DNA from: Candidatus Hodarchaeota archaeon
GTDB taxonomy: Archaea; Asgardarchaeota; Lokiarchaeia; Sigyniarchaeales; SOKP01
DNA length: 64,000 bases
Assembly: GCA_048887225.1 (NCBI GenBank)
Contig: JBHLJY010000003.1
Coordinates: forward strand, 1-64,000
Direction: 5' to 3'
Shown: positions 14,816 through 63,481 of the stretch, piece by piece
Layout: each line of letters starts with the position of its first letter
Numbering within the stretch: position 1 is the stretch's first letter
Made by a program: the position numbers and the translations under genes
The notes under the pieces: model-generated
Told to the model about the DNA's origin: nothing
Seen by the model: the letters and a program-made list of their open reading frames with translations, nothing else
Databases searched by the model: none

Positions 14816-15499
14816 TTACTTAGTATCTTTAGGTTTTTTTTTACAAGAATTTAAATGACGACCAAGCCTAACAAATTCTTTTCCACAGTAAGGACATTTC
14901 TTTTTTCCCTCTGCTATTATTTTTTCTTCTGCTTTACTTTGTTTCGCTTTTGCTGGTTTTTCTTTAGCTGTTCTACGCTTTCTCTTCTTTTTAGGTTTTA
15001 AAGGTAAAATATCATCTAGGCTCGCATCGTCAGGAGCAAGCTCGCAATCTTGAATATGACTGGCAAGGTCATCATATAATTCACCACAGAAAGGACATTC
15101 TACTCCTGCGAAATCTTCTCCTTCTTCTAAAGCTTCCTTTCCTACTTTTCTCTTTTCAAATTTGAGAGGAATTTCTTCCTCCTCTTCTTCAAATTCGTCA
15201 ATGGAAAGATCGATATCTTCTTCTTTTACTATTTCTTCAATTTCAAATTCTTCTAATTCTTCTTTAATTTTCTTCTCTGCGATTTTTTTGGATTCTTCAT
15301 AAATTTCCGATATAACTACGTTTGATTTAGGATCATACAAATAACATACTTGACAAACATATGCGCGTGGGGCAATGATCAGTTCTCTTTCAGGACAATA
15401 GCATAAAGGTTGAAGGCTATTAGAGATATCTCCTTTTGGAGTGAGATGCTTGCACGCAATTTTTCGAGAATATTTTATTTTTTGCTTCCTTCTGGGTAT
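14816..15499 (-). CDS. Multi-zinc-finger protein (N-terminal Cys/His cluster, acidic linker, two C2HC fingers); probable ATA start
   Basis: Frame of the 174-aa ORF stays open 53 codons upstream: (M)PRRKQKIKYSRKIACKHL...LCYCPERE...VCQVCYLYDPK. GGTGA lies 7 nt before ATA 15499. Fingers CPFC..HIQDC and CPYC..HLNSC. Confidence 0.75.
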   Translation of the reverse strand: MPRRKQKIKYSRKIACKHLTPKGDISNSLQPLCYCPERELIIAPRAYVCQVCYLYDPKSNVVISEIYEESKKIAEKKIKEELEEFEIEEIVKEEDIDLSIDEFEEEEEEIPLKFEKRKVGKEALEEGEDFAGVECPFCGELYDDLASHIQDCELAPDDASLDDILPLKPKKKRKRRTAKEKPAKAKQSKAEEKIIAEGKKKCPYCGKEFVRLGRHLNSCKKKPKDTK

Positions 15500-15595
15500 C
15501 GTGAATTCACCATAAAAAAGAGTAAGGAAAATAATATACCTTAAAATTTAATTTTTATGATATTGAGATTTGGAAAATAAAAATTAGTTTTTAGC

Positions 15596-17221
15596 TTAAA
15601 AATTTAACTGCACTGAATTAAGGTCTTTTTTAATTTTTTCTTGTTCTTCTGGATCTTCAATTCTCGAAATTAATTCTTCAACTATATCCTTGAGTTCTAA
15701 AATTTTTTGAGAGAGTGATTCAGGTTTACTCCATAAGGATTTTCTTAAAGGATGACCTCTCAAAATTGCTTCATTAAGACTTCTAATCGCTTGTTCATAA
15801 AAAAGTGCTGCATTGTATATTTGATTTAATCTTGACTGATAAATTGTTCCGATTTTATTATAACACAAACCCGCTCCTGCGAAATCACCAGCATTTTCGT
15901 AATCAATTGAAGCTTGTTGAATTTTTTTTAAAGCTTCTTCAAAGAATTCATCATCTTCCTTCTTAATCATCAAATACCCAATTAAATAATTTGCTTCACC
16001 TTTATAAAACAAATGATCTCGTTTAACTGATATATTGTATAATTCTTCAACAAATTCTTCGGCTAATACATTATGATTTGTTAGAATACAATGTTCTGAT
16101 AAGTTTTTCAATAATTCTAGAACTCGATCATAATCGTTAAGCATCTTGTACTTATAAATTCCTTCACGATATTTTTCAACACCCATAAACGCATCTTTTT
16201 GTTTAAATGCTTGATTACCCTCAAAAATAGATTGTTCAGCGGCTTCTTTTACTGACGCGGTTTCTTTTCTTTTCTTATCTAAATCACCATAAAAGAAATC
16301 ATCTACATCAAATTTAATGTCTTCAGATAGAGGGATCTCCTTTAATAATACTTCTGAAATATGATCTATTTTTTCTTTAGTGGATTCTTTGATTTCTTGC
16401 CGTTCTATTACTTCTGAAGGTTCTTGATATGAAGATTCAAGTTCGTATTCTTCACCATAAGCAGATTGTAATGGTTTTCCTGCTGATACTAATGCTGAAA
16501 GTTCGGATAACACATTAGCAAAAAAGAATTTATTAAGCCCATCAATAATATAATCTACTTTATGATAATTGTTATCAAATTTAGGATGATTAACATCCAT
16601 ATTTATATCAGTCATTCGATAAATTTCAAACCCAGTGTCATATTTAGTAATCTTATGTTCTGTACCTTTTACTTTTTCTTGCTTCTTTTTTCCAAGAAGG
16701 GTATGATCAAAAACTAATCCACAAAAATCTTCATTTCTTGCTTGAAATCCTAATTGATTGATAAGATCAATATAAGAAAAAAATAATCCTAACCCAGGAT
16801 GAGAGTGAAACCATCCAATCATATAATATCCTTTCGTAGTTTTGTCTTTGTCTAATTTATTCTGTATTTCTTCTATAAACCCATAATGTTGTTCATCTAA
16901 TTTAACGTCAGTTGCATGACCATACGTTAAAGCCTCAGCTTTTTCGATATATACGAAATCATCATCAGAATAACCAATTAAGATTCCATAAATTTCTTTC
17001 CATTGCTCAGAAGGGATTGATTTATTTGCAAAACGACTTGCATATAATATTATCGTTTTATAAGCCTCCGCTTTAATAATTATGGGTTTTTCATCTTTTT
17101 TCTTTTTCTGCTCCTCCTTAACTTCTTCTTTAGAATTATCTAGTTCTTTTTCTATCTCGTTCTTAACAGATTTTTGTTGTTTTTCTTTCTCTTCTTTTTT
17201 TTTTTTAAATTTTTTTAACAT
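15596..17221 (-). CDS. JAMM/MPN+ metalloprotease (Rpn11-like) fused to C-terminal TPR-like repeats
   Basis: EIYGILIG...GWFHSHPGLGLFFSYIDLINQ gives an intact E-HxH-x7-S-x2-D motif; C-terminal helical repeats (AGLCYNKIGTIY, AALFYEQAI). Confidence 0.85.
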   Translation of the reverse strand: MLKKFKKKKEEKEKQQKSVKNEIEKELDNSKEEVKEEQKKKKDEKPIIIKAEAYKTIILYASRFANKSIPSEQWKEIYGILIGYSDDDFVYIEKAEALTYGHATDVKLDEQHYGFIEEIQNKLDKDKTTKGYYMIGWFHSHPGLGLFFSYIDLINQLGFQARNEDFCGLVFDHTLLGKKKQEKVKGTEHKITKYDTGFEIYRMTDINMDVNHPKFDNNYHKVDYIIDGLNKFFFANVLSELSALVSAGKPLQSAYGEEYELESSYQEPSEVIERQEIKESTKEKIDHISEVLLKEIPLSEDIKFDVDDFFYGDLDKKRKETASVKEAAEQSIFEGNQAFKQKDAFMGVEKYREGIYKYKMLNDYDRVLELLKNLSEHCILTNHNVLAEEFVEELYNISVKRDHLFYKGEANYLIGYLMIKKEDDEFFEEALKKIQQASIDYENAGDFAGAGLCYNKIGTIYQSRLNQIYNAALFYEQAIRSLNEAILRGHPLRKSLWSKPESLSQKILELKDIVEELISRIEDPEEQEKIKKDLNSVQLNF

Positions 17222-17350
17222 TAATTCTACCTTATTATCTCTTTATGAGATTAATTCTTAGAATAATATAAATATACTCTTAAAAAAAATTATTGTATCT
17301 AATTTTTATTGATCGGAAAAAAAATAGAGAATGTGAATAATGTAAATTTT

Positions 17351-18568
17351 TCAAATTATACCTTTTCTTTTAAATTGACGAATATCTTCGTCTGAATAAT
17401 TTAGGCTTTTCAGAATCTCTTCTGTATGCTGCCCCATTATTGGAGCAAGACTTCTTATTGTTAGTGGTGTTCTCGACATTTTGATTGGTGAAGCTACATT
17501 TTGAACTTCACCGAATTTTGGATGTTTTAATTTAACAACCATATTACGTGCTTTAATTTGAGGATCTTCACATGCTTCAGCGAAGGATTTTACGGGCATT
17601 ATACATGTGTCGTAATTTTTAAATATCTCAACCCATTCTTCTTGATTTTTCTTTAAAAATTCTTTTTGAATTTCTTCAAAAGCATACTCTTTTTCCTTGC
17701 CCTTTGCGTTTCCTTTTAATATTAAATCCTCACGACCAATTCCGTTGCATAATTCACGCCAGAATTTCACTTCAATAACCCCAACAGATAAATATTTTTT
17801 ATCCTTAGTCTTATAGACCGAATAAAATGGGAAATCTCCATGTAGTGGATTTCGTGGTTCAGTTATTCCATTATTTAAATTTTTTGAAAAATGGAAAGCT
17901 GCTGCCATGGGCATGAAAGAAAAAACCGAATCTGTCATTGAAATATCAAGATATTGACCTCTTCTCTCAGGATTTTTTTCTCTTTCAATTATTGCACCGA
18001 GTATTCCGATGGCGCTAACTAAGCCCCCACCAATATCAGCTACTTGGACTCCAGGAACTAATGGTTTTCGTTCTTGATCTTTTTGACCAAAAATGAGTCT
18101 TTCTTTGTTTAAGTTTAAGATTCCGCACAAAGCTATATAATTCAAATCGTGCCCCGCTAATTGTTCGTATGGACCATATTGACCGTATCCTGTTAAAGAA
18201 CAACAAATTATTGAAGGATTTATAGAAGCAAGGATTTCATAATCAATCTTTAATTTATTTGGCACTTTTGGCCGAAAAGTGTCAAGAACAACATCAGCAC
18301 GTCTGACTAATTCGTAAAATATTTCTCTTGCTTTATCTTTTTTCAAATTTAGAGTAATTGATTTTTTATTTCTCATAATAATAGAATTGAATGCGCTTTC
18401 TCGATATCGTCCCTTTTGAAAAAAAGGCATTGGATTCGCATAAGGATATTTAGGATCTTCGACACGGATAACATTTGCCCCTAAATCTGCTAAAATCATG
18501 CTACAATAAGGACCAGGAAGCATTCGTGATAAATCTAAGACAGTAATACTGTCTAATGGTAAAGTCAT
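17351..18568 (-). CDS. CoA-transferase family III (CaiB/BaiF)
   Basis: PLDSITVLDLSRMLPGPYCSMILADLGA, RNKKSITLNLK, GHDLNY, APIMGQHT; start moved to ATG 18568 to remove overlap. Confidence 0.92.
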   Translation of the reverse strand: MTLPLDSITVLDLSRMLPGPYCSMILADLGANVIRVEDPKYPYANPMPFFQKGRYRESAFNSIIMRNKKSITLNLKKDKAREIFYELVRRADVVLDTFRPKVPNKLKIDYEILASINPSIICCSLTGYGQYGPYEQLAGHDLNYIALCGILNLNKERLIFGQKDQERKPLVPGVQVADIGGGLVSAIGILGAIIEREKNPERRGQYLDISMTDSVFSFMPMAAAFHFSKNLNNGITEPRNPLHGDFPFYSVYKTKDKKYLSVGVIEVKFWRELCNGIGREDLILKGNAKGKEKEYAFEEIQKEFLKKNQEEWVEIFKNYDTCIMPVKSFAEACEDPQIKARNMVVKLKHPKFGEVQNVASPIKMSRTPLTIRSLAPIMGQHTEEILKSLNYSDEDIRQFKRKGII

Positions 18569-18635
18569 AATAATTAAAAAACTCAATATTACAAAAAAGT
18601 TATTAAAATTGGAAAAAAAAGAAGTTAATTTAAAC

Positions 18636-19148
18636 TTATAATTCAATAATCTCGGCTTCCATTTTATTCGTGTCAATAATAGCAAAAGTACTAGTTCCCG
18701 TTAAATATCCACATGCTTCACCTGGATTTACTATTAATACACCATTGTAATTTTTCTTATTTTCAACAGCATGAGTGTGTCCTGATAAGACTATGTCAAA
18801 ACTACTGGAATTAGCTAAAGATTCAATTAATTTTTGGGTTGGCATATGTGATGCGAATATTTTTTTGCCATCAAATTCCCTTATTATTTCTATTGATCCT
18901 TCTACTAGGCTGCATATTTGTCCTAAATTTTTTCTTAAAAACTCATGATCTCCATCGTTATTTCCAAATACACCAAAAAAATTCTTTTTAATTTGTTCAT
19001 TCAAACCATCAAACCATCTTTTTATGAATGGACTGCAATAATCTCCACAATGAATTAAAGCTTCGATATTCTCTTTGTTCATAATAGAAACAGCTTTTAA
19101 TATATTATCACGATGGTCATGAGTATCTGAAATTACTGCTAATTTCAT
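18636..19148 (-). CDS. YfcE/MJ0936-family metallophosphoesterase
   Basis: SDTHD, HCGD, GNND, SH, GHTH, NPGE motifs. Confidence 0.92.
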   Translation of the reverse strand: MKLAVISDTHDHRDNILKAVSIMNKENIEALIHCGDYCSPFIKRWFDGLNEQIKKNFFGVFGNNDGDHEFLRKNLGQICSLVEGSIEIIREFDGKKIFASHMPTQKLIESLANSSSFDIVLSGHTHAVENKKNYNGVLIVNPGEACGYLTGTSTFAIIDTNKMEAEIIEL

Positions 19149-19289
19149 ATATATCCACCATTAAATTTATTTGAGATTAACAAAATTAAGATATAATAAT
19201 AAAGGGAGATAATAATATAATTAAGGTTTTTTGAGAAAACAAATTTTAATTATTTTTATTAAGATTATTGGCAATTTGATGATATAGAA

Positions 19290-20369
19290 ATGATTGAGGA
19301 ATTTCTTAAGAATGAAAGTAAAGCTGTTAATGAGGAACTAGAAAAATTCTTTGATGAACTTAATAAAACAGAAAAAGAGATCTTATTTGCTGATTTCAAT
19401 AGCCAACTAAGAGAATTTATAGCCCCCAAAAAAAGTAAAGCAAAAAGGCTTCATCCTATATTATTGATAGCTGCTTTTAGCGGTATAATCAATCCTTTGT
19501 ATTTAGAAGAACAAATAGATGAAATTCGAAAGGTCTCAATATCGGTTGAATTGCTACATAGCGGACATTTAATCCATGACGATCTTATTGATAATGATGA
19601 TACAAGGAGAGGCAAACCTACTTTCCATGTTCAATTAAGAAATGAAATAAGTAAAATCTACAAATCAATAGATATTCCTGATAAAGATGAGTTAATTAAA
19701 CTATATGGAAGGGATATGAGTGTTTTAGGAGGTTCTTTTGGCTATCTTTTAGGATTAAATGTAATAAGAACTTCAAAATTTCCTGAACAGCTAAAATTGC
19801 TAGCAATTAATGAATATTCTGAAGCTATTGATTACTTAATTAGAGGATCGATTATTGAAGAATACATGGAATATAATAATATGACTATGAGTTTGGAACA
19901 ATATCTAAATATAGCTGAATTACAGCGAGCAAGATTATTTGAGATCTCAACTAAAATAGGAGCAATTTTAGCTAGAGGGAATGTATATTATCAAATTAAA
20001 CCTCTAAGTGAAGCAATGCTTAAAATTGGTCAAGCTTTTGCTATTAGAGATGATATCCTCGATGTGGGAAAAGATATTTTAGGAAAGAAAAAAAAATTCA
20101 TATACATTATAGCTGTACAAAATACTGATGAAGATCAATCAAGAATATTAAATGAAATTTATCGAAAACCAAAAATAAGTAATAATGATATGCGGCAGGT
20201 TCAAAATATTTTTACACAAACAAATGCTTTAGTAATAGCAGAACACTTCTCTAAGAATTTAGTTGAACAAGCAAAAAATTCTCTAAAGGATATTTATCCA
20301 GACCTTAATAAAGAGCAGAAAGTCTTCTTTAATGAATTTGCCGATTATATTTATATGCGTAATATTTAA
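19290..20369 (+). CDS. Polyprenyl diphosphate synthase family protein (divergent)
   Basis: KRLHP, ELLHSGHLIHDDLIDNDDTRRGKPT, second Asp motif RDDILD. Confidence 0.85.
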   Translation: MIEEFLKNESKAVNEELEKFFDELNKTEKEILFADFNSQLREFIAPKKSKAKRLHPILLIAAFSGIINPLYLEEQIDEIRKVSISVELLHSGHLIHDDLIDNDDTRRGKPTFHVQLRNEISKIYKSIDIPDKDELIKLYGRDMSVLGGSFGYLLGLNVIRTSKFPEQLKLLAINEYSEAIDYLIRGSIIEEYMEYNNMTMSLEQYLNIAELQRARLFEISTKIGAILARGNVYYQIKPLSEAMLKIGQAFAIRDDILDVGKDILGKKKKFIYIIAVQNTDEDQSRILNEIYRKPKISNNDMRQVQNIFTQTNALVIAEHFSKNLVEQAKNSLKDIYPDLNKEQKVFFNEFADYIYMRNI

Positions 20370-20377
20370 AATATTCA

Positions 20378-20968
20378 TTAAATTACAGCTGCGTCAACTT
20401 GATGTCTTTTTAACATTAAATTAGTAAGTTCTTTGAAAACTTCTAATATATTATAATTTTCAAGGGCAGAAGTTCTTAAAAAGCCATCAAGCTGCTTTTC
20501 TTTGACATAATCTTCTATTAAATCTTGACGAACTGATTCAGCTTTAGGTGTTTTTTTTAATAAATCCCTTTTACTTCCAACTAAAATTTTTGGTATTGAT
20601 TTCTCGGAGTTCTCAATCAATTTATCGTACCAAAAATCTAATTGTTGAAAAGAAGAAAAATTTACTGAGTCAAATAATATTAGTGCTCCATTTGCACCAT
20701 CAATAAATTTCGGGATTAATGGTTTAAAACGTTCTTGACCACCAAAATCAAATATGGAATTTACAACAAAGGTCTCATCTTTTGTTCCATCTTTAAATTT
20801 TATTCTTAGATAAGTTGAATGAAAATTAATTCCTATTGTCATATCCGTATTCATTTTAAAGGAATTGAAACAAAATCTGTTAAAAAGACAAGTCTTGCCA
20901 ACTCCAGGGGCACCTAAAATCACGATCTTAAAAGCATAGCTCACTTTTTCTTCCGGGATATATGGCAC
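20378..20968 (-). CDS. Ras-superfamily small GTPase (Rab-like)
   Basis: G1 GAPGVGKT, G2 TIG, G3 DFGGQERF, G4 SKRD, G5 TSA; no C-terminal Cys. Confidence 0.93.
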   Translation of the reverse strand: MPYIPEEKVSYAFKIVILGAPGVGKTCLFNRFCFNSFKMNTDMTIGINFHSTYLRIKFKDGTKDETFVVNSIFDFGGQERFKPLIPKFIDGANGALILFDSVNFSSFQQLDFWYDKLIENSEKSIPKILVGSKRDLLKKTPKAESVRQDLIEDYVKEKQLDGFLRTSALENYNILEVFKELTNLMLKRHQVDAAVI

Positions 20969-21130
20969 GACTCTCTCCCTCTTCCAGAATTTTAATTTTT
21001 AGTATATTGTAATCTTGAAAAAGTAAATAATTCTTAGTTAAATAAAATTATTATTATGTATAATGCGAAAATCTAAATTTTAGGGCTCTCTATTATATAC
21101 ATATAAGTGTATACCATTAAATGATATCTC

Positions 21131-22039
21131 ATGGTCGTAAAACTTCCAGCTGAAAAAATTGTAATAAGACCTCCGATTGAAGCATATTCTATTTTGATAC
21201 CCGTCACTGGAGGGTGTTCTTGGAATAAATGCAAATTTTGTGGGACTTACAAAGGAATGTATGGGGGTATTCAAGATTATACGATACGACCTTTAGAAGA
21301 TGTAAAAATGAACATAGATTATTATTCTGAAAGAAATTATCATGGATTTCCCGTTTTTTTAGCAGGAGGTAACCCAACCTCTGCTCCTACGGAATATCTT
21401 GTTGAAATCATAGAATATATCAGACAAAAGCTTAAAAATATTCCAAGGGTTAGTAGTTATGCTAAAGCATTAGATATTTTAAGAAAAACTGATTGGGAAT
21501 TAAAGCAATTAGCAGCTGCAGGATTAGATATTGTATACATGGGATTAGAAAGTGGAAGTAGTAAAATATTAAGAATTATGAAAAAGGGGACAAATGCAGA
21601 ATCTATGATTAAATCTGGTAAAAACCTTTTGAATGCTGGAATAAAATTAAGCTTATATATAATCCTTGGTTTAGGTAGCTACAAATATTCTGAAGAACAC
21701 GTTAGAGAAACTGCAAGGGTTCTGACTGAGATTAATCCAACAATATTTCGATTCAGGACTTTAAATATTTTGCCAAATACTCCACTTTGGAACGAATGGA
21801 AATCAGGGGAATTTAAAATGTTGAAACCTGTTGATAATTTAAAAGAGGAGAGGGATATTATTGCTAATTTAGGAGATAATGTGACTTCTCAAGTATATAA
21901 CGACCATATCTCTAATTATTGCGAGCTTGAATCGTCAAACATCAAAGAAGACAGAGATATGTTTATAAAAACATTAGATTCTTTTATTAACGACCCCAGA
22001 ATTCAAAATTTACCTAGGAAAAATTTACTTCATATGTAA
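21131..22039 (+). CDS. Radical SAM protein (paralogue of 13863..14795)
   Basis: RPPIEAYSILIPVTGGCSWNKCKFC, YMGLESG, NDHISNY. Confidence 0.9.
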   Translation: MVVKLPAEKIVIRPPIEAYSILIPVTGGCSWNKCKFCGTYKGMYGGIQDYTIRPLEDVKMNIDYYSERNYHGFPVFLAGGNPTSAPTEYLVEIIEYIRQKLKNIPRVSSYAKALDILRKTDWELKQLAAAGLDIVYMGLESGSSKILRIMKKGTNAESMIKSGKNLLNAGIKLSLYIILGLGSYKYSEEHVRETARVLTEINPTIFRFRTLNILPNTPLWNEWKSGEFKMLKPVDNLKEERDIIANLGDNVTSQVYNDHISNYCELESSNIKEDRDMFIKTLDSFINDPRIQNLPRKNLLHM

Positions 22040-22129
22040 GTACTAGTAATAAAGTTTTATAAAGAGAATTATCTTTATATCCAAAAATTAAATAAAAAAA
22101 TTAACAAAAAAATAAACAGTGATCATAAG

Positions 22130-23596: not shown

Positions 23597-23764
23597 GTGT
23601 CTTATTTTGCAATAAAATAATTTTCTCTTTTTAAAGATAAATTATTTGTCATATGTTTGCTATTTCTGATTATTAAATATTCATTAATAAATTATTAACG
23701 ATATTAAACATTACATTACATAATACCAGATCTTTATTGAAATTTAAAACGAAGCTGATTTTTT

Positions 23765-25992: not shown

Positions 25993-26019
25993 AAGCTAAA
26001 TAATCTATATTATTTTTGA

Positions 26020-42678: not shown

Positions 42679-42691
42679 ATTTAACTTAGTA

Positions 42692-46161: not shown

Positions 46162-46317
46162 TTTTCAGAAAAATTTTTGATCTTATATAAGTTTAATCCT
46201 TCTCGCAATCAATGTGAGCTTAAATTAAAGGTTCTTTTTTTAGTAATTAAAAAATCTTTAATATTTATTGCAATCTTTAATACTTATTAAAAAATAAAAT
46301 ACAGAAATTGATAAAAA

Positions 46318-47076
46318 ATTATTGGATGGATAATACTATTTAGTTTTTTAGGGAGTGTTGGTGCTATTTGTGCAGCAGCTAGCTTTGTTTTTTTGGGAGA
46401 GAAATATCAAAAAATGCTTGTGCCCATTCTTATAGCATTTGCTACGGGAATACTTCTTGCTGCTGCATTATTAGGTCTAATACCCGAAGCTATTGAAGAA
46501 ATGGGTGAGGAACCACATGCGATTATGCCATTTATTTTGGGAGGTATTTTGTTCTTCTTTTTCATGGAAAAGATTGTGATATGGAGAAATTGTCGAGATA
46601 ATACTTGTGAGGTTCATTCACATGCCTCAGGCCCTATTATACTTATTGGAGACTCCTTACATAATTTATCAGATGGAGTTGTAATAGCAGCTGCCTTTTT
46701 AATTGATTTTGCCCTTGGTATAGCAGCTGGTATTACAATTTTAATTCATGAATTAGCTCATGAGACAGGAGATTTTGGTATCTTACTTCATACAGGATAT
46801 TCAAAAAAGAAAGCTTTTACATATAATATAGTTTCGAGCGCAACTACAATACCTGCCGCAATAATAGGTTATTATTTGTTGACTCCGTTTCTTTTTATTG
46901 TTCCCTTTTTGTTAGCTATCGCAGCAGCAAGTTTTATTTACATTGCATTAACAGATCTAACTCCTGAACTCCATAAACATACTAGTTTAAAGTATAGCAT
47001 TCGTCAATTAATCCTAATTTTAGCAGGAATTTTTACAATGTTCATATTATTATCGCTAAGCGGGCAAGCACACTAA
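46318..47076 (+). CDS. ZIP-family metal transporter; probable ATT start
   Basis: GDSLHNLSDG, HELAHETGD, YIALTDLTPELH. The first TM (IGWIILFSFLGSVGAICAAASFVFL) is in frame upstream of TTG 46393 and bounded by TAA at 46312. Confidence 0.9.
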   Translation: MIGWIILFSFLGSVGAICAAASFVFLGEKYQKMLVPILIAFATGILLAAALLGLIPEAIEEMGEEPHAIMPFILGGILFFFFMEKIVIWRNCRDNTCEVHSHASGPIILIGDSLHNLSDGVVIAAAFLIDFALGIAAGITILIHELAHETGDFGILLHTGYSKKKAFTYNIVSSATTIPAAIIGYYLLTPFLFIVPFLLAIAAASFIYIALTDLTPELHKHTSLKYSIRQLILILAGIFTMFILLSLSGQAH

Positions 47077-48925: not shown

Positions 48926-48939
48926 TATATAAATTCTCT

Positions 48940-51124: not shown

Positions 51125-51232
51125 ATATCCGAAGAAGAAGAAAAAAGAGAAGAAGAAATTTTTATGAAGTATATTAAAGAATTAGAAAAATTGATTAAAG
51201 AGCAAGTTGATCAAGATAACGATAGATTCTGA
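51125..51232 (+). CDS. Possible 35-aa acidic helical peptide (ATA start)
   Basis: (M)SEEEEKREEEIFMKYIKELEKLIKEQVDQDNDRF*; purine-rich coding-like tract with GGGGA upstream. Confidence 0.35.
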   Translation: MSEEEEKREEEIFMKYIKELEKLIKEQVDQDNDRF

Positions 51233-52916: not shown

Positions 52917-53273
52917 TAAAAAAGAAAATTACTTATTTTTTAAATATAGCAATTAATTTACTTAGCTTTAAGAGCAGAGTAATTGAAATTAAATTTTTTG
53001 CTACAATTACGAAAAATTTTCATATTTAAACTTATCTATAAAAATTTGAATTTCATTTATAAAAATCGGAAAAAATCAAACATTTAAATATGAGAAAAAG
53101 GTATATTTCATAGATATTTTTTTTAATTGGATGATTTTATATGAACAATTATCTATTTGTTTCAAAGAGTATTTTAATAAAAAATCATCTAGGTAATTTT
53201 TCATATTTAAATGAAAATTAAGTTTTAAAAGCTTTAATTCTAATAACTTATCAATTAAGAATATAATAAAAAT

Positions 53274-54740: not shown

Positions 54741-54818
54741 ATCATAAAACTTCTTTAAATTTAATAGCTAGATCTAATGTATAAAATTTCAAATTTTAAA
54801 ATTTAGATGAATTAAGGT

Positions 54819-56714
54819 TTGAACGAGTCAGAATCAGAAGTAATTCCACTTGAAGTTGAGAAAAAATATGGAATAAAAGCTGGAGTTCTATATGGAATAG
54901 GTTGTGGAATTGGAGGTTCGATATTTATTCTCTTAGGTACAGGAATCGGTATAGCGGGACCTGGTGTTTTAATAAGTTTATTACTTGGAGGAATTTTGAT
55001 TTTATTGATTGCCTTAAATTATTCCGAGCTTTCAGCGAGTCTGCCAATTTCTGGTGGCGCATATAATTTTAGTAAAGAAGGTATAGGTGGTTTTTCAGCA
55101 TATATTATAGGTTTTTTTTTATGGATTGCTAATATCGCCACATGTTCCTTTTCAGCCCAAGCATTAGCTTTAATAATCGTGATATTTTTTCCTTTCTTGA
55201 ATAATTATATATTTATAATCATTATTTCAGTGTTTTCAGTTTTATTCATAAGTATAGTATTTTTCAGGACTCAAAGATTTGCTGTAAGAACTTTAATCAT
55301 ACTAACAATAATTTTAATAGCAATTTTTTGTATTTTTATTCTCTCGGGATTATTAATTTCTCCATATACTAATGTATCTGGGTATAATCCTAATTTTATT
55401 TATTCTAAATCAAACTTTTTCGGTGTAATACAAATGTTTGCTCTTCTCTTTATATTTTTTACTTCAATTACATCAAATTTAGCATATTTTAACATAGATT
55501 TAAAAAATCCATCGAAAAACATTCTAAAAGTAAATATTCTTGCAATATTAATAACCTTATTAATTTATTTATCAATAAGCTATGTTGTATTAATCAATGT
55601 TGGCAATAAAATAGACAGAATAGGCGATTCTCCTATTTTATTAGGGGAAATCTTGTTCGATATATTAGGATCTGTAGGTTTTTATCTTATGGGTATAGCT
55701 GCTATTATATCAATCTTAATTGCTATGAACGCGGCTCTTGGTTCTGCTGTTAGCGTTTTTCAAGCTTTATCAAGAGATCATTATTTCCCAAAGATTTTTA
55801 ACGAAGTGAGTAAAAAATCTAATGTTCCAGTATATTCATTAATAATCACAACAATTATAGTAATAATTTTTACGTTTATTGCAACAATTTTTGCTAATAT
55901 TGGATTTACGGCCGGAATAACTATTTTCATATATTTTTTTGGATTAGCATTTGTTAATTTAGCTGCAGTTAATTTAAGATATAAGAGGAAAGAGTTAGAT
56001 CGACCATTTAAAGCACCATTTTTTCCTTTTTTACCAATTATTGTAGCAATAACTTGCCTAATATTAGCGTTTATTTTAGAGCCCAGTGCAATTATTTTAG
56101 GCTTAATTATATTTGCTATTGCGGTAATTTACTATTTATTAACTATAGCTGATCGTTATTCTTTAGTAATTACATTTGCGGGAATAAAATTAATTTCTTT
56201 AATATTTGTAGGTCTTTTCATTTGGATTATTAATAATATAAGCGTAATAAGTGTGTCTATTACCGGATTTAATATCTTTTTTCATTATGTTCTTTTGCGA
56301 ATATTAATATTTATTTGTATTTTCACAATTGGGACAATATTACTTGATTTAGTACCACTTCGAGAGTTAATTTATTTTTTTACTAAAAAATTAGATAAAG
56401 AAAGAGTTGCAATTGACCTTGGATTCGGGCAAATAATTGAATTAGATAAAATGAGATTAAAAATTCTTCAAAGGGTAAATTTAGCTATAGCAATTGGTCA
56501 AATAATATCCTCGTTATTTATTTTCTTTATGATTTATTTATTTGGAATGGAGATTGTCTCAATTGAAAAAATTACTCTCGGAAATATAAATATTAGTCAT
56601 ATAATGGCAGAATATTTATGGCTGACCTGTTTAATTTTATTAGGAAGTTCTCTCTTGGTTAGTGGTGTTTTAATGATATATATAAATCGCGAAGTACTAT
56701 CGCTTGGAGTTTAA
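54819..56714 (+). CDS. APC-family amino acid permease with extra C-terminal TMs
   Basis: GCGIGGSIF, YSELSASLPISGGAY, ALSRDHYFP, RPFKAP. Confidence 0.9.
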   Translation: MNESESEVIPLEVEKKYGIKAGVLYGIGCGIGGSIFILLGTGIGIAGPGVLISLLLGGILILLIALNYSELSASLPISGGAYNFSKEGIGGFSAYIIGFFLWIANIATCSFSAQALALIIVIFFPFLNNYIFIIIISVFSVLFISIVFFRTQRFAVRTLIILTIILIAIFCIFILSGLLISPYTNVSGYNPNFIYSKSNFFGVIQMFALLFIFFTSITSNLAYFNIDLKNPSKNILKVNILAILITLLIYLSISYVVLINVGNKIDRIGDSPILLGEILFDILGSVGFYLMGIAAIISILIAMNAALGSAVSVFQALSRDHYFPKIFNEVSKKSNVPVYSLIITTIIVIIFTFIATIFANIGFTAGITIFIYFFGLAFVNLAAVNLRYKRKELDRPFKAPFFPFLPIIVAITCLILAFILEPSAIILGLIIFAIAVIYYLLTIADRYSLVITFAGIKLISLIFVGLFIWIINNISVISVSITGFNIFFHYVLLRILIFICIFTIGTILLDLVPLRELIYFFTKKLDKERVAIDLGFGQIIELDKMRLKILQRVNLAIAIGQIISSLFIFFMIYLFGMEIVSIEKITLGNINISHIMAEYLWLTCLILLGSSLLVSGVLMIYINREVLSLGV

Positions 56715-56758
56715 TATCAAAAGAAGAAGATAATTAATCTAAAAAATTCTTTTTTAAA

Positions 56759-57487
56759 ATGGATTTTCCGAAAATAAATCTTCATACCCATACGATTTTT
56801 TCTGATGGTAGAAATAGCATTAAAGAAATCGTAATGAAATCTCTCAAGAAGGGATTAAATTATCTTGCCATTACTGATCATTTTTCAAATTCATGGAAAT
56901 CTGGTATAATTTCTACATTAAACACGACTGAAAAAATTCAGGAATACTTAAAACAGATATCAGATTGTCAGAACTTCTTAAAAAATACTAATAAAACTAT
57001 GAAACTCTACAAAGGTATTGAAATCGATATTGGAAGTTCATTTAATTTTATAAAAAGGTTTATCCAACCAGTCAAATTTAATTTAATCTTATTTGAATAT
57101 CTCGAAACTCCAGAAGGTTTAGCATATATTAGAAATATAATTGAATATTGGAAAAAAACCACTCCTATTAATAATAAATTTCCATTATTAGGCTTAGCTC
57201 ATTTCGATCCATCAAGTTTTATGTATCAAGGCCTAGATCAATTAATATTTTTTCTAAAAGAATATAATATATATTTCGAGTTTAACTCAAGTTATTACGA
57301 ATATTTTTCTCGAAGAAATGAATTATTTTTTCAAAAATTAAAAAAACAAAATATACCTGTAGCTATAGGGAGCGATGCTCATAATTCAAGGGGATTGGAT
57401 GAAATAGGAGAACCTTATGAAATGATTAAAGTTTATAATCTTGAGAAAAACTTAGAAGTATTTTTGGAAAATTTGAAAAAGAGATAA
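56759..57487 (+). CDS. PHP-domain phosphoesterase
   Basis: NLHTHTIFSDG, AITDH, GIE, AH, GSDAH. Confidence 0.9.
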   Translation: MDFPKINLHTHTIFSDGRNSIKEIVMKSLKKGLNYLAITDHFSNSWKSGIISTLNTTEKIQEYLKQISDCQNFLKNTNKTMKLYKGIEIDIGSSFNFIKRFIQPVKFNLILFEYLETPEGLAYIRNIIEYWKKTTPINNKFPLLGLAHFDPSSFMYQGLDQLIFFLKEYNIYFEFNSSYYEYFSRRNELFFQKLKKQNIPVAIGSDAHNSRGLDEIGEPYEMIKVYNLEKNLEVFLENLKKR

Positions 57488-57510
57488 TTAAGAAATTATT
57501 GGTTTCTTGA

Positions 57511-57942
57511 TTAAATTGAAAAATTTAATTTGATTTTTCCACTCATTACTTTGTCACCACCTAGTTTTTCTGCTTGGTATTCACAATCTACAATTTTTTT
57601 ATTATTTTTAGTCTTGATGTCAGAAATCTTTCCTTTAAATACTATTACGTCGTCTGGATAAACGGGATTCTCAAATTTTACGGTAATATTACTTAATGCT
57701 TTTATATTACTATCAATCCAATCAATTATCCATTTAGGGATAAAAGAAAATAAAAAATTGCCAGCTACAAGAACATCATTATAGCCTAATCTTTGCACAT
57801 AAATTTTACTAAGATGCATTGGATTAATTTCCCCTATTAATCTGTTATATTGCTTATAGGTTTTTTTATCAACTTTTACATTTAGAGGTGGAATAAGTTG
57901 CCCTATTTTTATCGTATTTAGATCCAATTTTTTATCCAACAT
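57511..57942 (-). CDS. MaoC-family (hotdog) dehydratase subunit
   Basis: GEINPMHLS...LGY..VLVAG, VKFENPVYPDD; hydratase motif is variant. Confidence 0.8.
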   Translation of the reverse strand: MLDKKLDLNTIKIGQLIPPLNVKVDKKTYKQYNRLIGEINPMHLSKIYVQRLGYNDVLVAGNFLFSFIPKWIIDWIDSNIKALSNITVKFENPVYPDDVIVFKGKISDIKTKNNKKIVDCEYQAEKLGGDKVMSGKIKLNFSI

Positions 57943-57966
57943 TTTAAGTGCATCTAATTTTATTTA

Positions 57967-58458
57967 TTATAATCTGAAAAAACATATATGATTATCAATG
58001 GCATAAATATTATTATTTTCATCTAAAACAGAAAATTTAAAAGTTATAGAACAGTAAACTCCCTTCTTTCCTTTTTTTTCAATTGGTTCTGATAGTTCTA
58101 CTTTTATTGTGTATTTTTTATTCATTAAAAGTGGCATAAAAAATTCTACTTCTGATCCCACATGTATAAATGCTTTAACCAAATTTGAGAATAAATCTGG
58201 TCCACTTTTAGTTAGAATTTGCTGAACTAAAGGATTTGTAAGACTCATTAAATAACCTGGATGGATTATTTTACTTTCAAAACCTGCTTTAATTGCTGTT
58301 GAATCGTCTCGAAAAATTAAATTGTTATCTTCAATCAATTCGCAATATTTTACAATCTCCATTTCATCTTGATCAATTTCTGTAATACCAATATCTTCCA
58401 TATTTTTTTTCAATCGCATATTAAGTTCTTCTATTTTTGATGAACTAATGTTTGTCAT
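57967..58458 (-). CDS. MaoC-like N-terminal-type hotdog subunit (partner of the downstream gene)
   Basis: IVKYCELIEDNNLIFRD..A..AGF, IHVGSEVEFFMPL. Confidence 0.75.
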   Translation of the reverse strand: MTNISSSKIEELNMRLKKNMEDIGITEIDQDEMEIVKYCELIEDNNLIFRDDSTAIKAGFESKIIHPGYLMSLTNPLVQQILTKSGPDLFSNLVKAFIHVGSEVEFFMPLLMNKKYTIKVELSEPIEKKGKKGVYCSITFKFSVLDENNNIYAIDNHICFFRL

Positions 58459-58581
58459 AGATTAAACTCTTTTAAAAAGAATTTTTAAATAATCAAATTT
58501 TCACAATTTAATTCCTTTTATTAATAATGAAAGTAAACATAATAATTATCTTTTTATAATCGAAGTTTCTTAGTTTATATT

Positions 58582-59334
58582 ATGGATTTAGAAGAAAAAA
58601 TTGAATTAGCTGCAAAATGGGTCGCCGATTCAAAAAAGTTAGTGGTTTTTACAGGTGCAGGAATATCAACAGATAGCGGATTACCGGATTATAGGGGACC
58701 AGAGGGTGTTTGGACAAGACGCGATAAAGGGTTACCTCCACCTAAATCACCTCCGTGGGATCAAGTAACACCTAATGCTGGACATATGGTTATTGTGGAT
58801 TTATTAAAAATGGGAAAATTAGATTATCTTATCTCTCAAAATGTTGATGGACTCCACGCAAAATCAGGAATCCCTTTTGAAATCATGGCAGAATTACATG
58901 GAAACATGTACTTCATGAAATGTTTAGGGGATTGTGGAAAAAAAATGACATTTGAAGATGCTGGATGGGATAAAAAAAAGTGGGGGAAAGGATATCTCAC
59001 CAATCGGATAAGAAAAGATCAGCCTAATTGCCCTAACTGTGGGGGAAGACTTATTAATAGTATTGTGAACTTTGGAGATCCTTTACCTCAAGACGAATTA
59101 TATGAATCAATAAGAAGATCTGAACAATCAGATGTTTTTTTTGTTATCGGATCTTCCTTAGTCGTAACACCTGCGGCTAGTATGCCTGGGATTGCAAAAA
59201 AAAATGGGGCGAAGCTAATTATTTTGAATGCGGGTGAAACGCCTTATGATCAAGTAGCTGACTTAAGATTTTTTAATACAATAAGTGAAGTACTTCCTCC
59301 AATCATGGAAAAAGTAAAAGCTATGGTTAATTAG
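58582..59334 (+). CDS. Sir2-family NAD-dependent deacylase (class IV-like)
   Basis: FTGAGISTDSGLPDYRGPEGVWT, SQNVDGLH, ELHGN, two Cys pairs, GSSLVVTPAA. Confidence 0.93.
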   Translation: MDLEEKIELAAKWVADSKKLVVFTGAGISTDSGLPDYRGPEGVWTRRDKGLPPPKSPPWDQVTPNAGHMVIVDLLKMGKLDYLISQNVDGLHAKSGIPFEIMAELHGNMYFMKCLGDCGKKMTFEDAGWDKKKWGKGYLTNRIRKDQPNCPNCGGRLINSIVNFGDPLPQDELYESIRRSEQSDVFFVIGSSLVVTPAASMPGIAKKNGAKLIILNAGETPYDQVADLRFFNTISEVLPPIMEKVKAMVN

Positions 59335-59343
59335 AGGCTTTAC

Positions 59344-60987
59344 TTATTTTAACTTAGCAAAAATTTTTTTATTTCTGTCGACTTCTTTGAGAATTCTTCT
59401 TCCTTCTTGATTAGATAAGGATAAATTAATATCACTACTTCTACTTAATGAACCTGTAAAAATAAGCTCATTTTCTGCAAAGACTTCAATGTTTTGACTC
59501 GCATATTGAGGATCTGCTTGAATTATAATTTTTTTTTTATCAATTGTAATGTCTAATTCAATCATTTTTTTCATTGATTTCTTCTTTTTATTCGGGAATT
59601 CTGAGAGTTTTTTCCCTCTCCTTGGTTTTATCGGGACTATTACTACATCTTGACCAAAAGAATAAATCTCATATTTTAATTGCCCAGTACCATAATCTCT
59701 AACATCAACAACGGGGCGCGCTAAGTCTTTATCTCTAAATCCATTTGGAACCTTTACTGTCATTTTCAGGACTAAAACATTGGTAATATCTCCTCCTTCT
59801 ATGAAAATAATTGTATCAATAATAGAAGGAAGCATTCCTAGTTCTACACGACCTATAAATCTCTGGATGGCATCTATAGCGGAGGAAGAATGAACCACTC
59901 CTATCATACCTACTCCTGATAAACGAAAATCAGCATAAATTTCAAAATCTTTTGTAGTTCTCACCTCGTCAAAAATAGTATAATCAGGTCTTACAAGCAG
60001 TAAAACGTCCGCAGAATTTTCTAGACTTCCTTCAAGCTTAGTATATTGTGTGATCTCTGGTTCAACTTGTAAATCTCTAACACTTTCTAATGTTTTTACT
60101 ACTTTGTCTCGTTCTAAATAATAATTTGCCAATGCTGCTGAAAACGTTGATTTTCCCGCACCTGGCGACCCCGCTACTAAAATACCTTCTGCCTTTTGTA
60201 ATCTTTCTCTTAATCTACTATCAATACTATAATCATTTAAAGTTAAGCTAACTAAAGGGCGGACTGCTGTAATTTCCACATCATTAGAAAAGGGAGGTCG
60301 AGTGATGACAATTCTAAATTCTCGTAATTGTGCAACTACGGCGCCTTCTTTTTCGATTTCGATAAAGGAACGTTCATCTTCTCTAACATTTTCTATTATT
60401 TCAAGAGCAATATCTTCTATTAATTTATTGTTAATAGACTCATGATCTACCTTTACTAAATGCCAATCACCTGGAGCACCTTTTTTCGCATAAGGGGGCA
60501 AACCTCGTTTAAGATGAACACTCATAGTTGTCTCATCAAAATAATCAAAAATCTTGAGCTTTAAAGATTCTTTTCTAAGGGGTGGCTTCTTTTCCCAAGC
60601 AAATAAAACTTCTAAACCCTCAAAAATACCTACATCCCCTTGAATTCTATCTGCCGTAATTAATATAGCATTGTTTTCTAAAGCAGATTTCCGTATTAAT
60701 GCATCGAGCTCCCCACCTGGACTCATTTTTATTTCCTCTCTCGTTGGGCGACTCCCTATGATTTTCAAATTAATTTTTTTCTCATTATGAAGTTCTCGTA
60801 ATTCTTTTAAGATATTAAGCCCGTAAAATCCTATCTCTTTTTGAATATTTGTACGATATTCAACTTCTGCAATAACAATATTAGAAATAATGATTTCTGG
60901 ATTGTCTCCCAATTCTCCATCCTCAATAAGACTTAGAATCTGACCATTAAAAATAACAGAAGTGTCACATGCAAATTTATCTGGCAT
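59344..60987 (-). CDS. PINA: PIN-domain/VirB11-like ATPase
   Basis: N-terminal PIN (CDTSVI, GELDALIR, TAD); GSPGAGKSTF, LLVRPDYTIFDEVR, DAIQRFIGRVELG, DLARPVV. Confidence 0.9.
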   Translation of the reverse strand: MPDKFACDTSVIFNGQILSLIEDGELGDNPEIIISNIVIAEVEYRTNIQKEIGFYGLNILKELRELHNEKKINLKIIGSRPTREEIKMSPGGELDALIRKSALENNAILITADRIQGDVGIFEGLEVLFAWEKKPPLRKESLKLKIFDYFDETTMSVHLKRGLPPYAKKGAPGDWHLVKVDHESINNKLIEDIALEIIENVREDERSFIEIEKEGAVVAQLREFRIVITRPPFSNDVEITAVRPLVSLTLNDYSIDSRLRERLQKAEGILVAGSPGAGKSTFSAALANYYLERDKVVKTLESVRDLQVEPEITQYTKLEGSLENSADVLLLVRPDYTIFDEVRTTKDFEIYADFRLSGVGMIGVVHSSSAIDAIQRFIGRVELGMLPSIIDTIIFIEGGDITNVLVLKMTVKVPNGFRDKDLARPVVDVRDYGTGQLKYEIYSFGQDVVIVPIKPRRGKKLSEFPNKKKKSMKKMIELDITIDKKKIIIQADPQYASQNIEVFAENELIFTGSLSRSSDINLSLSNQEGRRILKEVDRNKKIFAKLK

Positions 60988-61582
60988 TAAAATCAGAATT
61001 GATATCTTTATTCATAATCTGAAAATTCTTCACATTGTAATAAATAGGCTTACTTAACCTGTCTACTGTTGCAACAATTAGTTCCTTGCGAGAACTCATG
61101 GCAACTCTAGAAATTTTGTCTAAATCTCTTAATTCTATCGGATCTCCCTCAAAAACGGGGAAAATTAAATATTTAGCGGAATCTTTTTCGTAATCTGCAC
61201 CTCTTTTATACACCCGAAATTCAATTCCATCTCCATATCCCGTACGAACTATATATCCTCTCTTTCTTAAATCCATATAGATTATGTACTTATGCCATAA
61301 TTTTTCGTCAAATTGAGTAAAATAAGTTAAAATATCTTCAAAATTGTATTGCTTCTTATTCTTATCATTATCTTCCCATATCAATATCCTATGCCTTTCA
61401 CTAAGGAGTAATACTTCAACAGAATCTAAAATTAAAATTTCTTTTCCTTCCCTATTTTTTTCAACATTCCCTATATATGAAATTTTGTAAAATTCTTCAA
61501 TTCCTGCAAGATCCGAAATCAATACTTTATCTTTCTCTATTGCGCCTTCTACTTGTATTTTCTCATCAGATTTTTCTGTCAT
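60977..61582 (-). CDS. endA: tRNA-intron endonuclease subunit (probably structural)
   Basis: KYIIYMDLRKRGYIVRTG, FRVYKRG, RVAMSSRKELIVATVD, IYY. Confidence 0.85.
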   Translation of the reverse strand: MTEKSDEKIQVEGAIEKDKVLISDLAGIEEFYKISYIGNVEKNREGKEILILDSVEVLLLSERHRILIWEDNDKNKKQYNFEDILTYFTQFDEKLWHKYIIYMDLRKRGYIVRTGYGDGIEFRVYKRGADYEKDSAKYLIFPVFEGDPIELRDLDKISRVAMSSRKELIVATVDRLSKPIYYNVKNFQIMNKDINSDFNAR

Positions 61583-61681
61583 ATCCTAATTGATCAATTA
61601 TATTTTCTAATTAATGAATTTAATCATTTCTTTACCCAATTAGAAAAATTAATTTGGTATCGAGTATTTTTTTCCTTAACT

Positions 61682-62251
61682 ATGAAAGAACTGCTGGAAA
61701 AATTGCTAATTCGATTAAAGGGCGCAAAAAAAGTCCTATTTATGGGTATTGGTGAAGAAAAAATGACGGATGATGGAGTAGGACCTTATATTACAAGTGA
61801 ACTTCTTAATTATTCCAGCGAAAAATTCTTATTTATAAATGCTAATATTGATCCAATGTCAAGAATCGATTATATTTTTAATTTTCATCCTTCTCATTTA
61901 GTCATTTTGGATACATGCACATTAGATGCCCCTCCTGGCACCATTGCTCTTTTAGAACGAGAAAATATAGGTGAATTTGTACCAATATCTTCTCATACTA
62001 TACCAATTCATATTGTAATTGATTTAATCCTCGAAAAAATCCCTAATTTGAGTGTACTTATGATCGGTTTTGTTCCAGAAAGTCTTGAAGGATTCGAGGA
62101 GCTTACTTTATATAAAGATAGAGAATTCACTATTGATGATAAAAACGAAAATTTAGACATACCTTTTTTTAATTTTCAACTTACCGAAACAATTCAAAAA
62201 GTAGCTGACGAAATGATTATTGTTATTAAAGAATTAATTAAAAAGTTGTAA
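61682..62251 (+). CDS. Hydrogenase maturation protease (HycI-like)
   Basis: LFMGIGEEKMTDDGVG, VILDT, PGTI, SSHTIP; start moved to ATG 61682. Confidence 0.85.
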   Translation: MKELLEKLLIRLKGAKKVLFMGIGEEKMTDDGVGPYITSELLNYSSEKFLFINANIDPMSRIDYIFNFHPSHLVILDTCTLDAPPGTIALLERENIGEFVPISSHTIPIHIVIDLILEKIPNLSVLMIGFVPESLEGFEELTLYKDREFTIDDKNENLDIPFFNFQLTETIQKVADEMIIVIKELIKKL

Positions 62252-62318
62252 AATTTTCTCTTGAATCTTTAATATAATGATATAAACGTCTTAGAAAGAT
62301 TTTTAAAAATTGCTTTGC

Positions 62319-63143
62319 CTAACATACTAAACAATTTTCTCTCTTTTCTAAAATATAACTTTCTAAAGTGTTGGAAAATAGGTCAAATATGATTCGATTT
62401 GGGCAATCTTTTCTATGGATTGCTTGAATTAATATATTCACTGCTAAAGTCGAAGAAACCATTGCTGTTAGAATCATAGTTGCTCCAAATTCTAGATTTT
62501 TAAAATCATGGTTCTCCAGTTCTTTCCAATCTATTTTCTCGAATGATAAGATATTATCTTGTGAAAATTTTTTAACCATTTGTTTACTCCTCACAGAACA
62601 CAAAATTGCTTGAAGACATTCGTAACACGGTTTATTTCCGTCTGAAGCTTGATATAGAATCATCCCCGAATATCCAGAAAAAGGGTCAGTTCCACTATAA
62701 ATCATTGGTTTCCCTAGTTTTAAACATACAATACCAACTAATGATCTCTTTATTTCTGGTAAATCTAAACTATTCATGATAAAATCACTTTCCTTAACGA
62801 TTTCTACTGTTTTTTGCCAATCCTCAAAAATGTCGTAATTGTAGGCTACGATTTCTGAAGATAAATTATCCAAACGATCTAATGTATTTTTTGCTACGTT
62901 GGCTTTATTCTTTCCGATATCTTTCTTTGAATAAAGAGTTTGTCTATTTAAGTTTGAGGCCTCAACGATGTCGTAATCAACTAAAATTATTTTTTTAAAT
63001 CCAATTCTCGTAGCTAATAATGCAATATTGCAACCTATACCTCCAATCCCTAAAATAGACAAAATCGACGATCTTATTTTATTCTGCGAAAACCATGGTA
63101 TTTTTTCTTGACGGGAGAAAAATCTATTATTATATTTACTCAT
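62319..63143 (-). CDS. E1-like ubiquitin-like-protein activating enzyme (ThiF/MoeB/UBA5 family)
   Basis: FSRQ, GIGGIG, DYDIVEASNLNRQ, GKNK, Zn pairs CYEC and CLVC; start moved to ATG 63143. Confidence 0.92.
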   Translation of the reverse strand: MSKYNNRFFSRQEKIPWFSQNKIRSSILSILGIGGIGCNIALLATRIGFKKIILVDYDIVEASNLNRQTLYSKKDIGKNKANVAKNTLDRLDNLSSEIVAYNYDIFEDWQKTVEIVKESDFIMNSLDLPEIKRSLVGIVCLKLGKPMIYSGTDPFSGYSGMILYQASDGNKPCYECLQAILCSVRSKQMVKKFSQDNILSFEKIDWKELENHDFKNLEFGATMILTAMVSSTLAVNILIQAIHRKDCPNRIIFDLFSNTLESYILEKRENCLVC

Positions 63144-63220
63144 AATTAATGAGAAAAAAGGAGTAAAGAAATATAAAAATAACAAATTTAAATAATAAAA
63201 AATTATAAAAAAAAAAATTT

Positions 63221-63481
63221 TTAAATCAAAAATCCTCCTGCTTGCGTAGCCATAACAGTTATTACGTCTTTTTTAGGGTGAATCCCGATTTTAGCAAATT
63301 TTAAATTATCTGGTAGTACCTTTCCTTTAAAAATAAATTGAATTGCCAAGATAGGATTCAATTTATATTCTCTCTGAACTGATTTTTTGATATCAGCAAT
63401 ATTTTGATTAGGATCTACCTCAATTAATTTAATAGCTTGGTCTGGAGGGACACCAGTAAGTCGGAACCTATATTGAGTAAT
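63221..63481 (-). CDS. Ubiquitin-like protein precursor (86 aa, GG-FLI C-terminus; ATT start)
   Basis: (M)TQYRFRLTGVPPDQAIKLIEVDPNQNIADIKKSVQREYKLNPILAIQFIFKGKVLPDNLKFAKIGIHPKKDVITVMATQAGGFLI*; aligns by eye to ubiquitin; adjacent to the E1. Confidence 0.88.
   Translation of the reverse strand: MTQYRFRLTGVPPDQAIKLIEVDPNQNIADIKKSVQREYKLNPILAIQFIFKGKVLPDNLKFAKIGIHPKKDVITVMATQAGGFLI

Follow-up and report, generated by a model that had tools for sequence, protein, structure and literature searches.

Probable AUU and AUA translation starts behind Shine-Dalgarno sequences in an Asgard archaeon and its relatives

Introduction

Do genes of Asgard archaea regularly begin at codons other than AUG, GUG and UUG? 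The question is raised by a 64,000-nucleotide stretch of DNA (the window; contig C3:1-64000 of the genome coded G000), in which three genes, encoding a ubiquitin-like protein (Ubl), a ZIP-family metal transporter and a zinc-finger protein, appear to start at ATT or ATA behind a Shine-Dalgarno (SD) sequence (Table 1). Rare AUU-initiated genes include E. coli pcnB, and ATT, ATC and ATA are alternative initiators in NCBI translation table 11. Reviews of archaeal initiation give only AUG, GUG and UUG (PMC7531240, PMC4705826), and ribosome profiling of Haloferax saw near-cognate sites, which were set aside (PMC7261190). The original prediction, made from the letters of the window, had proposed ATT or ATA starts at four sites, an identical 12-nt context at two of them, and relaxed start-codon selection in this lineage with under-annotation of its genes. 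Throughout, AUH denotes an AUU, AUA or AUC start, and ATG, GTG and TTG are referred to as canonical.

The host genome is a metagenome-assembled genome (MAG) of 3.27 Mb in 49 contigs with roughly 30% GC. Its close relatives are MAGs labelled Promethearchaeota/Promethearchaeia (Loki-type Asgard), and it belongs to genus g1 of family f1. Orthologues were searched with each protein in 30 relatives (coded G001-G021 and so on; 18 genera and four families, f1-f4, of one order), and the DNA was read at the codon aligned with the first codon.

Results

Three AUH starts in the window

The 3' end of the 16S rRNA reads GGATCACCTCCT (anti-SD end also given as …GGAUCACCUCCU), from which the full SD follows as AGGAGGTGATCC. 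Upstream of ATG genes in this genome, G is enriched at positions -15 to -8, and the modal arrangements are GTGAT followed by 5 nt and GGTGA followed by 6 nt. Compared with this reference, the GTGAT + 5 nt of the Ubl gene, the GGTGA + 7 nt of the zinc-finger gene and the TGAT + 5 nt of the ZIP gene are SDs that match the genome's own 16S tail at functional spacing. At all three genes, the conserved N-terminal structure is reached from the upstream in-frame stop without any intervening ATG, GTG or TTG, and no SD is present at the downstream TTG codons (63361, 46393 and 15340, respectively). In the orthologue comparison, sequence conservation reaches the AUH codon and ends there. Based on these features and on the analyses of the individual genes below, we consider the Ubl, ZIP and zinc-finger genes, i.e. 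three of the four proposed cases, to have real AUH starts behind an SD, with a probability of roughly 0.85.

Table 1. Coordinates of the genes, ribosome-binding elements and candidate open reading frame (ORF) discussed in the text (positions in the window).
Feature	Position	Strand	Details
Ubl gene	63221..63481	minus	ATT start 63481-63479; 86 codons plus TAA
Ubl SD core GTGAT	63491-63487	minus	5 nt (AAAAA) before ATT; fits 16S 3' end
ThiF-family E1-like gene	62319..63143	minus	directly downstream of Ubl; Pfam PF00899, E = 1.7e-41
ZIP-family metal transporter gene	46318..47076	plus	ATT start 46318-46320; 252 codons plus stop
ZIP SD remnant TGAT, weak	46309-46312	plus	5 nt (AAAAA) before ATT; relatives have GAAGTGGTAA here
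Zinc-ribbon/C2HC zinc-finger, acidic-basic protein gene	14816..15499	minus	ATA start 15499-15497; 227 codons plus stop
Zinc-finger gene SD core GGTGA	15511-15507	minus	7 nt before ATA 15499; 4 nt before ACG 15502
JAB/MPN-domain protein gene (541 aa)	15596..17221	minus	directly upstream of zinc-finger gene; Pfam PF01398, E = 3.6e-11
Fourth proposed case, ORF from ATA 51125	51125..51232	plus	35 codons; in-frame ATG at 51164

The Ubl is a genuine member of the ubiquitin family, with a profile match above the cut-off (Pfam PF00240, 37.4 versus 25.4 bits), a beta-grasp fold (AlphaFold pLDDT 89.7; ubiquitin, 1ubq, being the second-ranked Foldseek match with TM 0.75/0.84) and a Gly-Gly motif. As the C-terminus reads ...QAGG-FLI, processing is required to expose the Gly-Gly. 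In-frame TGA TAA AAA stand directly ahead of the ATT, and the first canonical in-frame codon, TTG 63361, corresponds to residue 41. Since beta1 (residues 2-8), beta2 (17-22) and helix 1 (28-38) of the predicted model all precede this residue, a start at the TTG would delete half of the fold. The aligned start codon is ATT in six genomes of genus g1 (G000, G002, G006, G009, G008 and G001) and ATA in a seventh (G004). Of the copies in genus g2, one has ATT and one ATG, and a single orthologue has TTG, while ATG is found at or beside the same codon in the remaining f1 genera with readable starts and throughout f2, f3 and f4; ATG was read in 13 orthologues outside genus g1. ATG is therefore ancestral, and the ATT a derived state retained during the speciation of genus g1. 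Across codons 2-42, 186 synonymous differences are opposed by 27 non-synonymous ones, and by 90 to 6 within the AUH-bearing genomes. Public calls of Ubl homologues (P0005, P0006, P0055, P0069 and P0098) have inconsistent N-termini, some carrying 20-30 spurious extra residues and others beginning only at VPPDQ..., MPPDQ... or LTGVPPD..., the pattern expected from mis-called non-canonical starts.

The ZIP gene (Pfam PF02535, 124.5 bits versus a cut-off of 35.1) also has in-frame TGA TAA AAA immediately ahead of its ATT, and its first canonical in-frame codon, TTG 46393 (residue 26), falls within the first transmembrane helix (TM1). The aligned start is ATT in five genomes (G000, G009, G002, G006 and G005), ATA in G010, ACG in G003 and ATG in four (G001, G004, G016 and G021), and in-frame stops are located a few codons ahead of it in the orthologues. 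The extension, comprising TM1, shows 87 synonymous versus 99 non-synonymous differences. A paralogue outside the window (G000:C6:3082-3807, minus strand, 58% identical) also carries an ATT where the first codon aligns, preceded by GGAGTTGAT and 4 nt; a TTG three codons further in renders its start ambiguous.

The zinc-finger protein, for which the Pfam search returned no matches above cut-off, consists of an N-terminal CxC...CxxC ribbon, an acidic middle part and two C-x2-C-x9-H-x3-C motifs, which we presume to resemble ubiquitin-binding fingers of the UBZ type. Its first canonical in-frame codon, TTG 15340, is inside the zinc ribbon. In all 13 relatives examined, (I/M)PRRKQK begins at the same codon, which is ATA in four, ATT in five, ATC in one and ATG in three (10 AUH and 3 ATG). 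GGTGA(T) is present 4-7 nt upstream in these orthologues, several of which also have in-frame stops 2-7 codons upstream. Codons 2-53 display 244 synonymous and 134 non-synonymous differences.

Judged from the substitution counts of the three genes, the codons between the AUH and the first canonical codon are under purifying selection. This bears on the alternative that translation starts at the downstream in-frame TTG, or that the genes are decaying pseudogenes, the upstream part being untranslated in either case. An in-frame TTG is indeed available at each gene; however, these codons lack an SD, starting there would cost the Ubl its beta1, beta2 and helix 1, the ZIP protein its TM1 and the zinc-finger protein its ribbon, and the constraint extends up to, and not past, the AUH, rendering this alternative very improbable. 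Sequencing or assembly errors masking true ATG codons could be suspected in a MAG of 49 contigs, yet 5-10 genomes, assembled independently and from different species, share the ATT or ATA within sequence that has diverged at many synonymous positions, and the probability of this explanation is next to nil. Together, the shared AUH starts and the purifying selection effectively exclude assembly error, pseudogenes and a downstream start.

Alternatively, an upstream canonical start could be combined with a frameshift or with read-through of the stops, for example on an A-run. A-rich runs do precede the ATT codons, and some ZIP orthologues possess an out-of-frame ATG 19 nt upstream. However, G000 has no upstream ATG at either the ZIP or the Ubl gene, the ZIP frame would need a +1 shift whereas A AAA AAT would favour -1, two consecutive in-frame stops precede the ATT, and the orthologues with ATG start exactly at the aligned codon. 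No conserved upstream ORF combined with a shift site was seen across the relatives, and we regard this scenario as exceedingly improbable. An alternative genetic code or read-through was also rejected, as table 11 gives long clean ORFs and two stops precede the ATT.

The three AUH starts were thus found where they had been proposed, at ATT 63481, ATT 46318 and ATA 15499. The claim that stops just ahead are combined with an essential element before any canonical codon holds for the beta strands of the Ubl and for TM1 of the ZIP protein, and the GGTGA 7 nt ahead of ATA 15499 does add a Cys-rich domain. ATG at the aligned codon of related genomes, named in advance as the observation that would support these starts, was detected for all three genes, and of the two outcomes said to speak against them, ATG in the true sequence is contradicted by the recurrence among independent assemblies, and absence of the extensions by orthologues that retain them under purifying selection.

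The identical 12-mer

Both the Ubl and the ZIP site read TGATAAAAAATT, i.e. an SD tail, an A-rich spacer and ATT, and this shared context had been considered meaningful. The 12-mer occurs in 23 copies in the genome, of which only those two precede an ORF of at least 60 codons. Already in the nearest relative, the Ubl gene has another context (GTGATGAAAAATT), and at the ZIP orthologues the sequence is GTGGTAAAAAATT. In addition, the in-frame TGA is an automatic consequence of GTGAT at the optimal 5-nt spacing. The identity is a coincidence, no more than expected by chance, and this part of the original prediction did not stand. That the 12-mer represents a shared cis-regulatory element coupling the Ubl and ZIP genes would be in keeping with two start sites of a single window matching at all 12 positions, but 21 of the 23 copies are not placed before an ORF of at least 60 codons, the spacer differs in the nearest and in all other relatives (conservation was tested at both genes and not found), an A5 spacer is not favoured among the genome-wide AUH candidates, and the bases ahead are unlike (GTGAT for Ubl, TTGAT for ZIP); such an element is extremely doubtful.

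AUH starts across the genome

The genome-wide analyses used 2737 non-overlapping stop-to-stop ORFs of at least 100 codons, which cover 88% of the genome, and scored in-frame codons more than 4 codons upstream of the first ATG, GTG or TTG for a 5-mer SD in register. The codons most enriched for an SD were ATT (32/1007), ATA (28/848) and ACG (7/81), compared to a background of about 1.0%, and AT-rich control codons remained at background, save for expected one-base shadows. SD-led ATT or ATA was about three times as frequent in frame (60/1855) as out of frame (28/2620; p = 2.9e-7), and 65 of the 2737 ORFs carry an SD-led upstream ATT, ATA or ACG. When the SD was required to be a 6-mer, the ORF starts comprised ATG (53), ATA (15), ATT (12), TTG (12), GTG (4), ATC (4) and ACG (4), i.e. 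27 for ATA and ATT together versus 16 for TTG and GTG, while the reversed-motif control yielded four ATA and four ATT. The optimal SD register is occupied by 33 of 60 AUH candidates versus 59 of 194 ATG starts (p = 5e-4). Moreover, the frequency of G at codon position 1 is 0.26 in the extensions, near the 0.30 of coding sequence and above the 0.10-0.13 of non-coding codons before starts (p = 3e-13). Together with the orthologues, the SD enrichment and these coding-type extensions support a lineage-wide relaxation of start-codon choice with systematic under-annotation, as had been predicted.

Initiator tRNA and aIF1

The sole initiator tRNA gene found (C34:11007-11133) has a CAU anticodon, A1:U72, three G-C pairs in the anticodon stem and a 48-nt intron in the anticodon loop. 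A BLAST search returned no paralogue of it, and no credible special initiator was identified. ARAGORN, with introns allowed, detected 32 tRNAs only, suggesting that many tRNA genes are intron-containing or unassembled. With a single ordinary initiator tRNA at hand, mismatch reading of AUH, and of ACG, is the simplest mechanism. It could instead be assumed that a special initiator, either a second initiator-like tRNA or one with a modified anticodon, reads AUH efficiently, considering how surprisingly frequent AUH is among strong-SD genes and that the tRNA set is incomplete. However, the one detectable initiator-type tRNA is the CAU form without a BLAST paralogue, both tRNA-Ile(UAU) calls look like mis-folds, and ACG is enriched as well, which fits better with a general tolerance of near-cognate codons; we therefore deem a special initiator unlikely.

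The gene of the initiation factor aIF1 itself begins at ATC in G000, following an in-frame TGA and with no ATG, GTG or TTG before the zinc knuckle, and, when aligned with aIF1 of M. jannaschii, its N-terminus including the knuckle corresponds to residue 3 onwards. Its start is ATC or ATT in 14 of the 16 f1 genomes with readable starts, TTG or ATA in several f2 genomes, and ATG in f4. The aIF1 gene is located 1-2 kb from the ZIP orthologue in three relatives (G001:C10, G003:C337 and G004:C112), and on a different contig in G000 (C26, with ZIP on C3).

Discussion

Based on the orthologue comparisons and the genome-wide analyses, we propose that AUH initiation in this lineage operates as follows. 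The Ubl, ZIP and zinc-finger genes would be intact, expressed and started at AUU or AUA on short-leadered mRNAs. Pairing of the SD with the 16S 3' end would bring the near-cognate codon, located 5-7 nt further downstream, into the P site, where the ordinary initiator Met-tRNA (CAU) would read AUH with a mismatch at the third position. The trait would belong to the lineage, family f1, rather than to these particular genes. ATG, ATT, ATA and ATC interchange at the aligned codon between species, and dozens of other genes in the genome share the SD-led AUH layout. By analogy, the AUC or AUU start of aIF1, a factor that discriminates against AUU in Sulfolobus (PMC4705826), suggests an infC-like feedback, which may set a permissive stringency. 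We infer the use of Met-tRNAi at AUH codons, the lowering or tuning of output by these codons and the autoregulation of aIF1. In its widest form, where a loop through AUC/AUU-started aIF1 keeps stringency permissive, and AUU, AUA, AUC and ACG are regular, evolvable starts that need a precise SD and act as an expression dial, also on genes of the ubiquitin system (the Ubl, and the zinc-finger gene beside a JAB deubiquitinase-like gene), the proposal is tentative, and we hold it possible though less than probable.

Several points weigh against the reading of AUH codons as regular starts in this lineage. The SD of the ZIP gene is weak in this genome (TGAT only), though relatives have GTGGT. The SD-based list contains false positives, with about 22 of the 65 ORFs expected by chance, and one candidate from the SD scan, ATA 12759, was refuted by its orthologues. 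Inspection of aIF1 for divergence, suggested at the outset, revealed no obvious change in the basic loop that contacts the codon and anticodon (KRKWGR versus KRRFGK in M. jannaschii). Finally, the whole-genome statistics cover this genome alone, and the lineage boundary is drawn from four genes.

The closest known kind of start is bacterial. The gene of initiation factor IF3, infC, starts at AUU and is under translational autocontrol (PMC4705826). As in infC, a near-cognate AUU is positioned behind an SD and, as proposed here, read by the normal initiator tRNA, and the gene of a fidelity factor uses a weak codon. In contrast to infC and pcnB, which are isolated genes, the genome studied here has 65 SD-led candidates, and AUH codons make up about one third of 6-mer-SD-led ORF starts. 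Furthermore, the machinery is of the archaeal/eukaryotic type (aIF1, aIF2), and aIF1, whose autoregulation is putative, is unrelated to IF3.

A second parallel is eukaryotic, where eIF1 is autoregulated through a poor start context (PMC4705826). aIF1 is the homologue of eIF1, and a weak start on the gene of a stringency factor would likewise give negative feedback. Unlike near-cognate initiation at CUG, ACG or AUU in eukaryotes, the codon is positioned by the SD and not by scanning, no Kozak-like -3/+4 signal was seen at the AUH candidates, and the weak element is a non-AUG codon where eIF1 has an AUG in poor context. Compared to canonical archaeal initiation, SD-led or leaderless, the anti-SD, the GTGAT + 5 nt spacing and the features of the initiator tRNA are the same, whereas here, among genes with a strong SD, AUU and AUA are roughly as frequent as UUG and GUG.

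Among Asgard archaea, a 'rare ATT start codon' has been proposed for the tubulin AtubA of a Heimdall-group MAG (PMC13394414). There, too, the annotated start falls after the first beta strand, with an ATT at a plausible distance from the ribosome-binding site. That case concerns a single gene of another Asgard class, mentioned as a methods remark in a structural paper, with no orthologue or genome-wide test and no lineage rule. In the literature searched, this remark was the only Asgard mention, and no systematic account of AUH initiation was found for archaea, Asgard or otherwise. What is new here is the frequent, lineage-wide use of AUH on archaeal machinery, the AUU starts of infC and pcnB being the closest known kind.

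For annotation, the consequence is that callers limited to ATG, GTG and TTG miss the 86-residue Ubl of genus g1 and truncate the ZIP and zinc-finger proteins, and Asgard surveys of eukaryote-like systems, ubiquitin included, depend on such gene calls. Counted strictly, the problem concerns at least 2% of the ORFs of this genome. Routine AUU and AUA starts, with a non-canonical start on the aIF1 gene as well, beside the eukaryotic stem would make the evolution of start stringency through aIF1 and eIF1 directly testable, and a permissive aIF1 loop, if true, would give the closest relatives of eukaryotes a prokaryotic version of near-cognate initiation under eIF1 control.

Other start calls and neighbouring genes

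The fourth and weaker of the proposed cases, ATA 51125, is not supported as an AUH start. The ORF has an ATG of its own at 51164, GGGGA takes the place of the SD, and no Pfam or Rfam match was found. Only G002, the nearest genome, retains this DNA, and the substitutions there form a mixed pattern; in G003 and G009 conservation is confined to the 3' part adjoining the following gene; the ORF may not be a gene at all. The SD-scan candidate ATA 12759, with GAGGT 8 nt upstream, was dropped because its orthologues start at an ATG aligned with position 12774. For the small membrane-like protein encoded there (12753-13127, plus strand), the mechanical call at GTG 12765 and the SD-scan ATA are therefore both wrong.

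The window also contains a tRNA-splicing endonuclease gene (60977-61582, minus strand), and the frame of a HycI-like (hydrogenase maturation protease) ORF (61481-62251, plus strand) overlaps the 5' end of this divergent gene. The first canonical codon of the HycI-like ORF, TTG 61553, has no SD ahead of it; with the Pfam match covering only the residues from 88 onwards, the true start is uncertain.

The ThiF-family E1-like gene was tried as an additional AUH case and dropped, since ATG 63143 fits; this canonical codon, and not the mechanical TTG 63185, is most likely its start. A T-rich spacer of 78 nt separates it from the Ubl gene, the two forming a compact ubiquitin-activation pair (62319-63481, minus strand), and in most relatives the 1.5 kb on either side of the Ubl gene do not include the E1 gene. 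On the same strand, the gene order across 13863-17221 is the JAB/MPN protein, the putatively AUA-initiated zinc-finger protein and a radical SAM gene.

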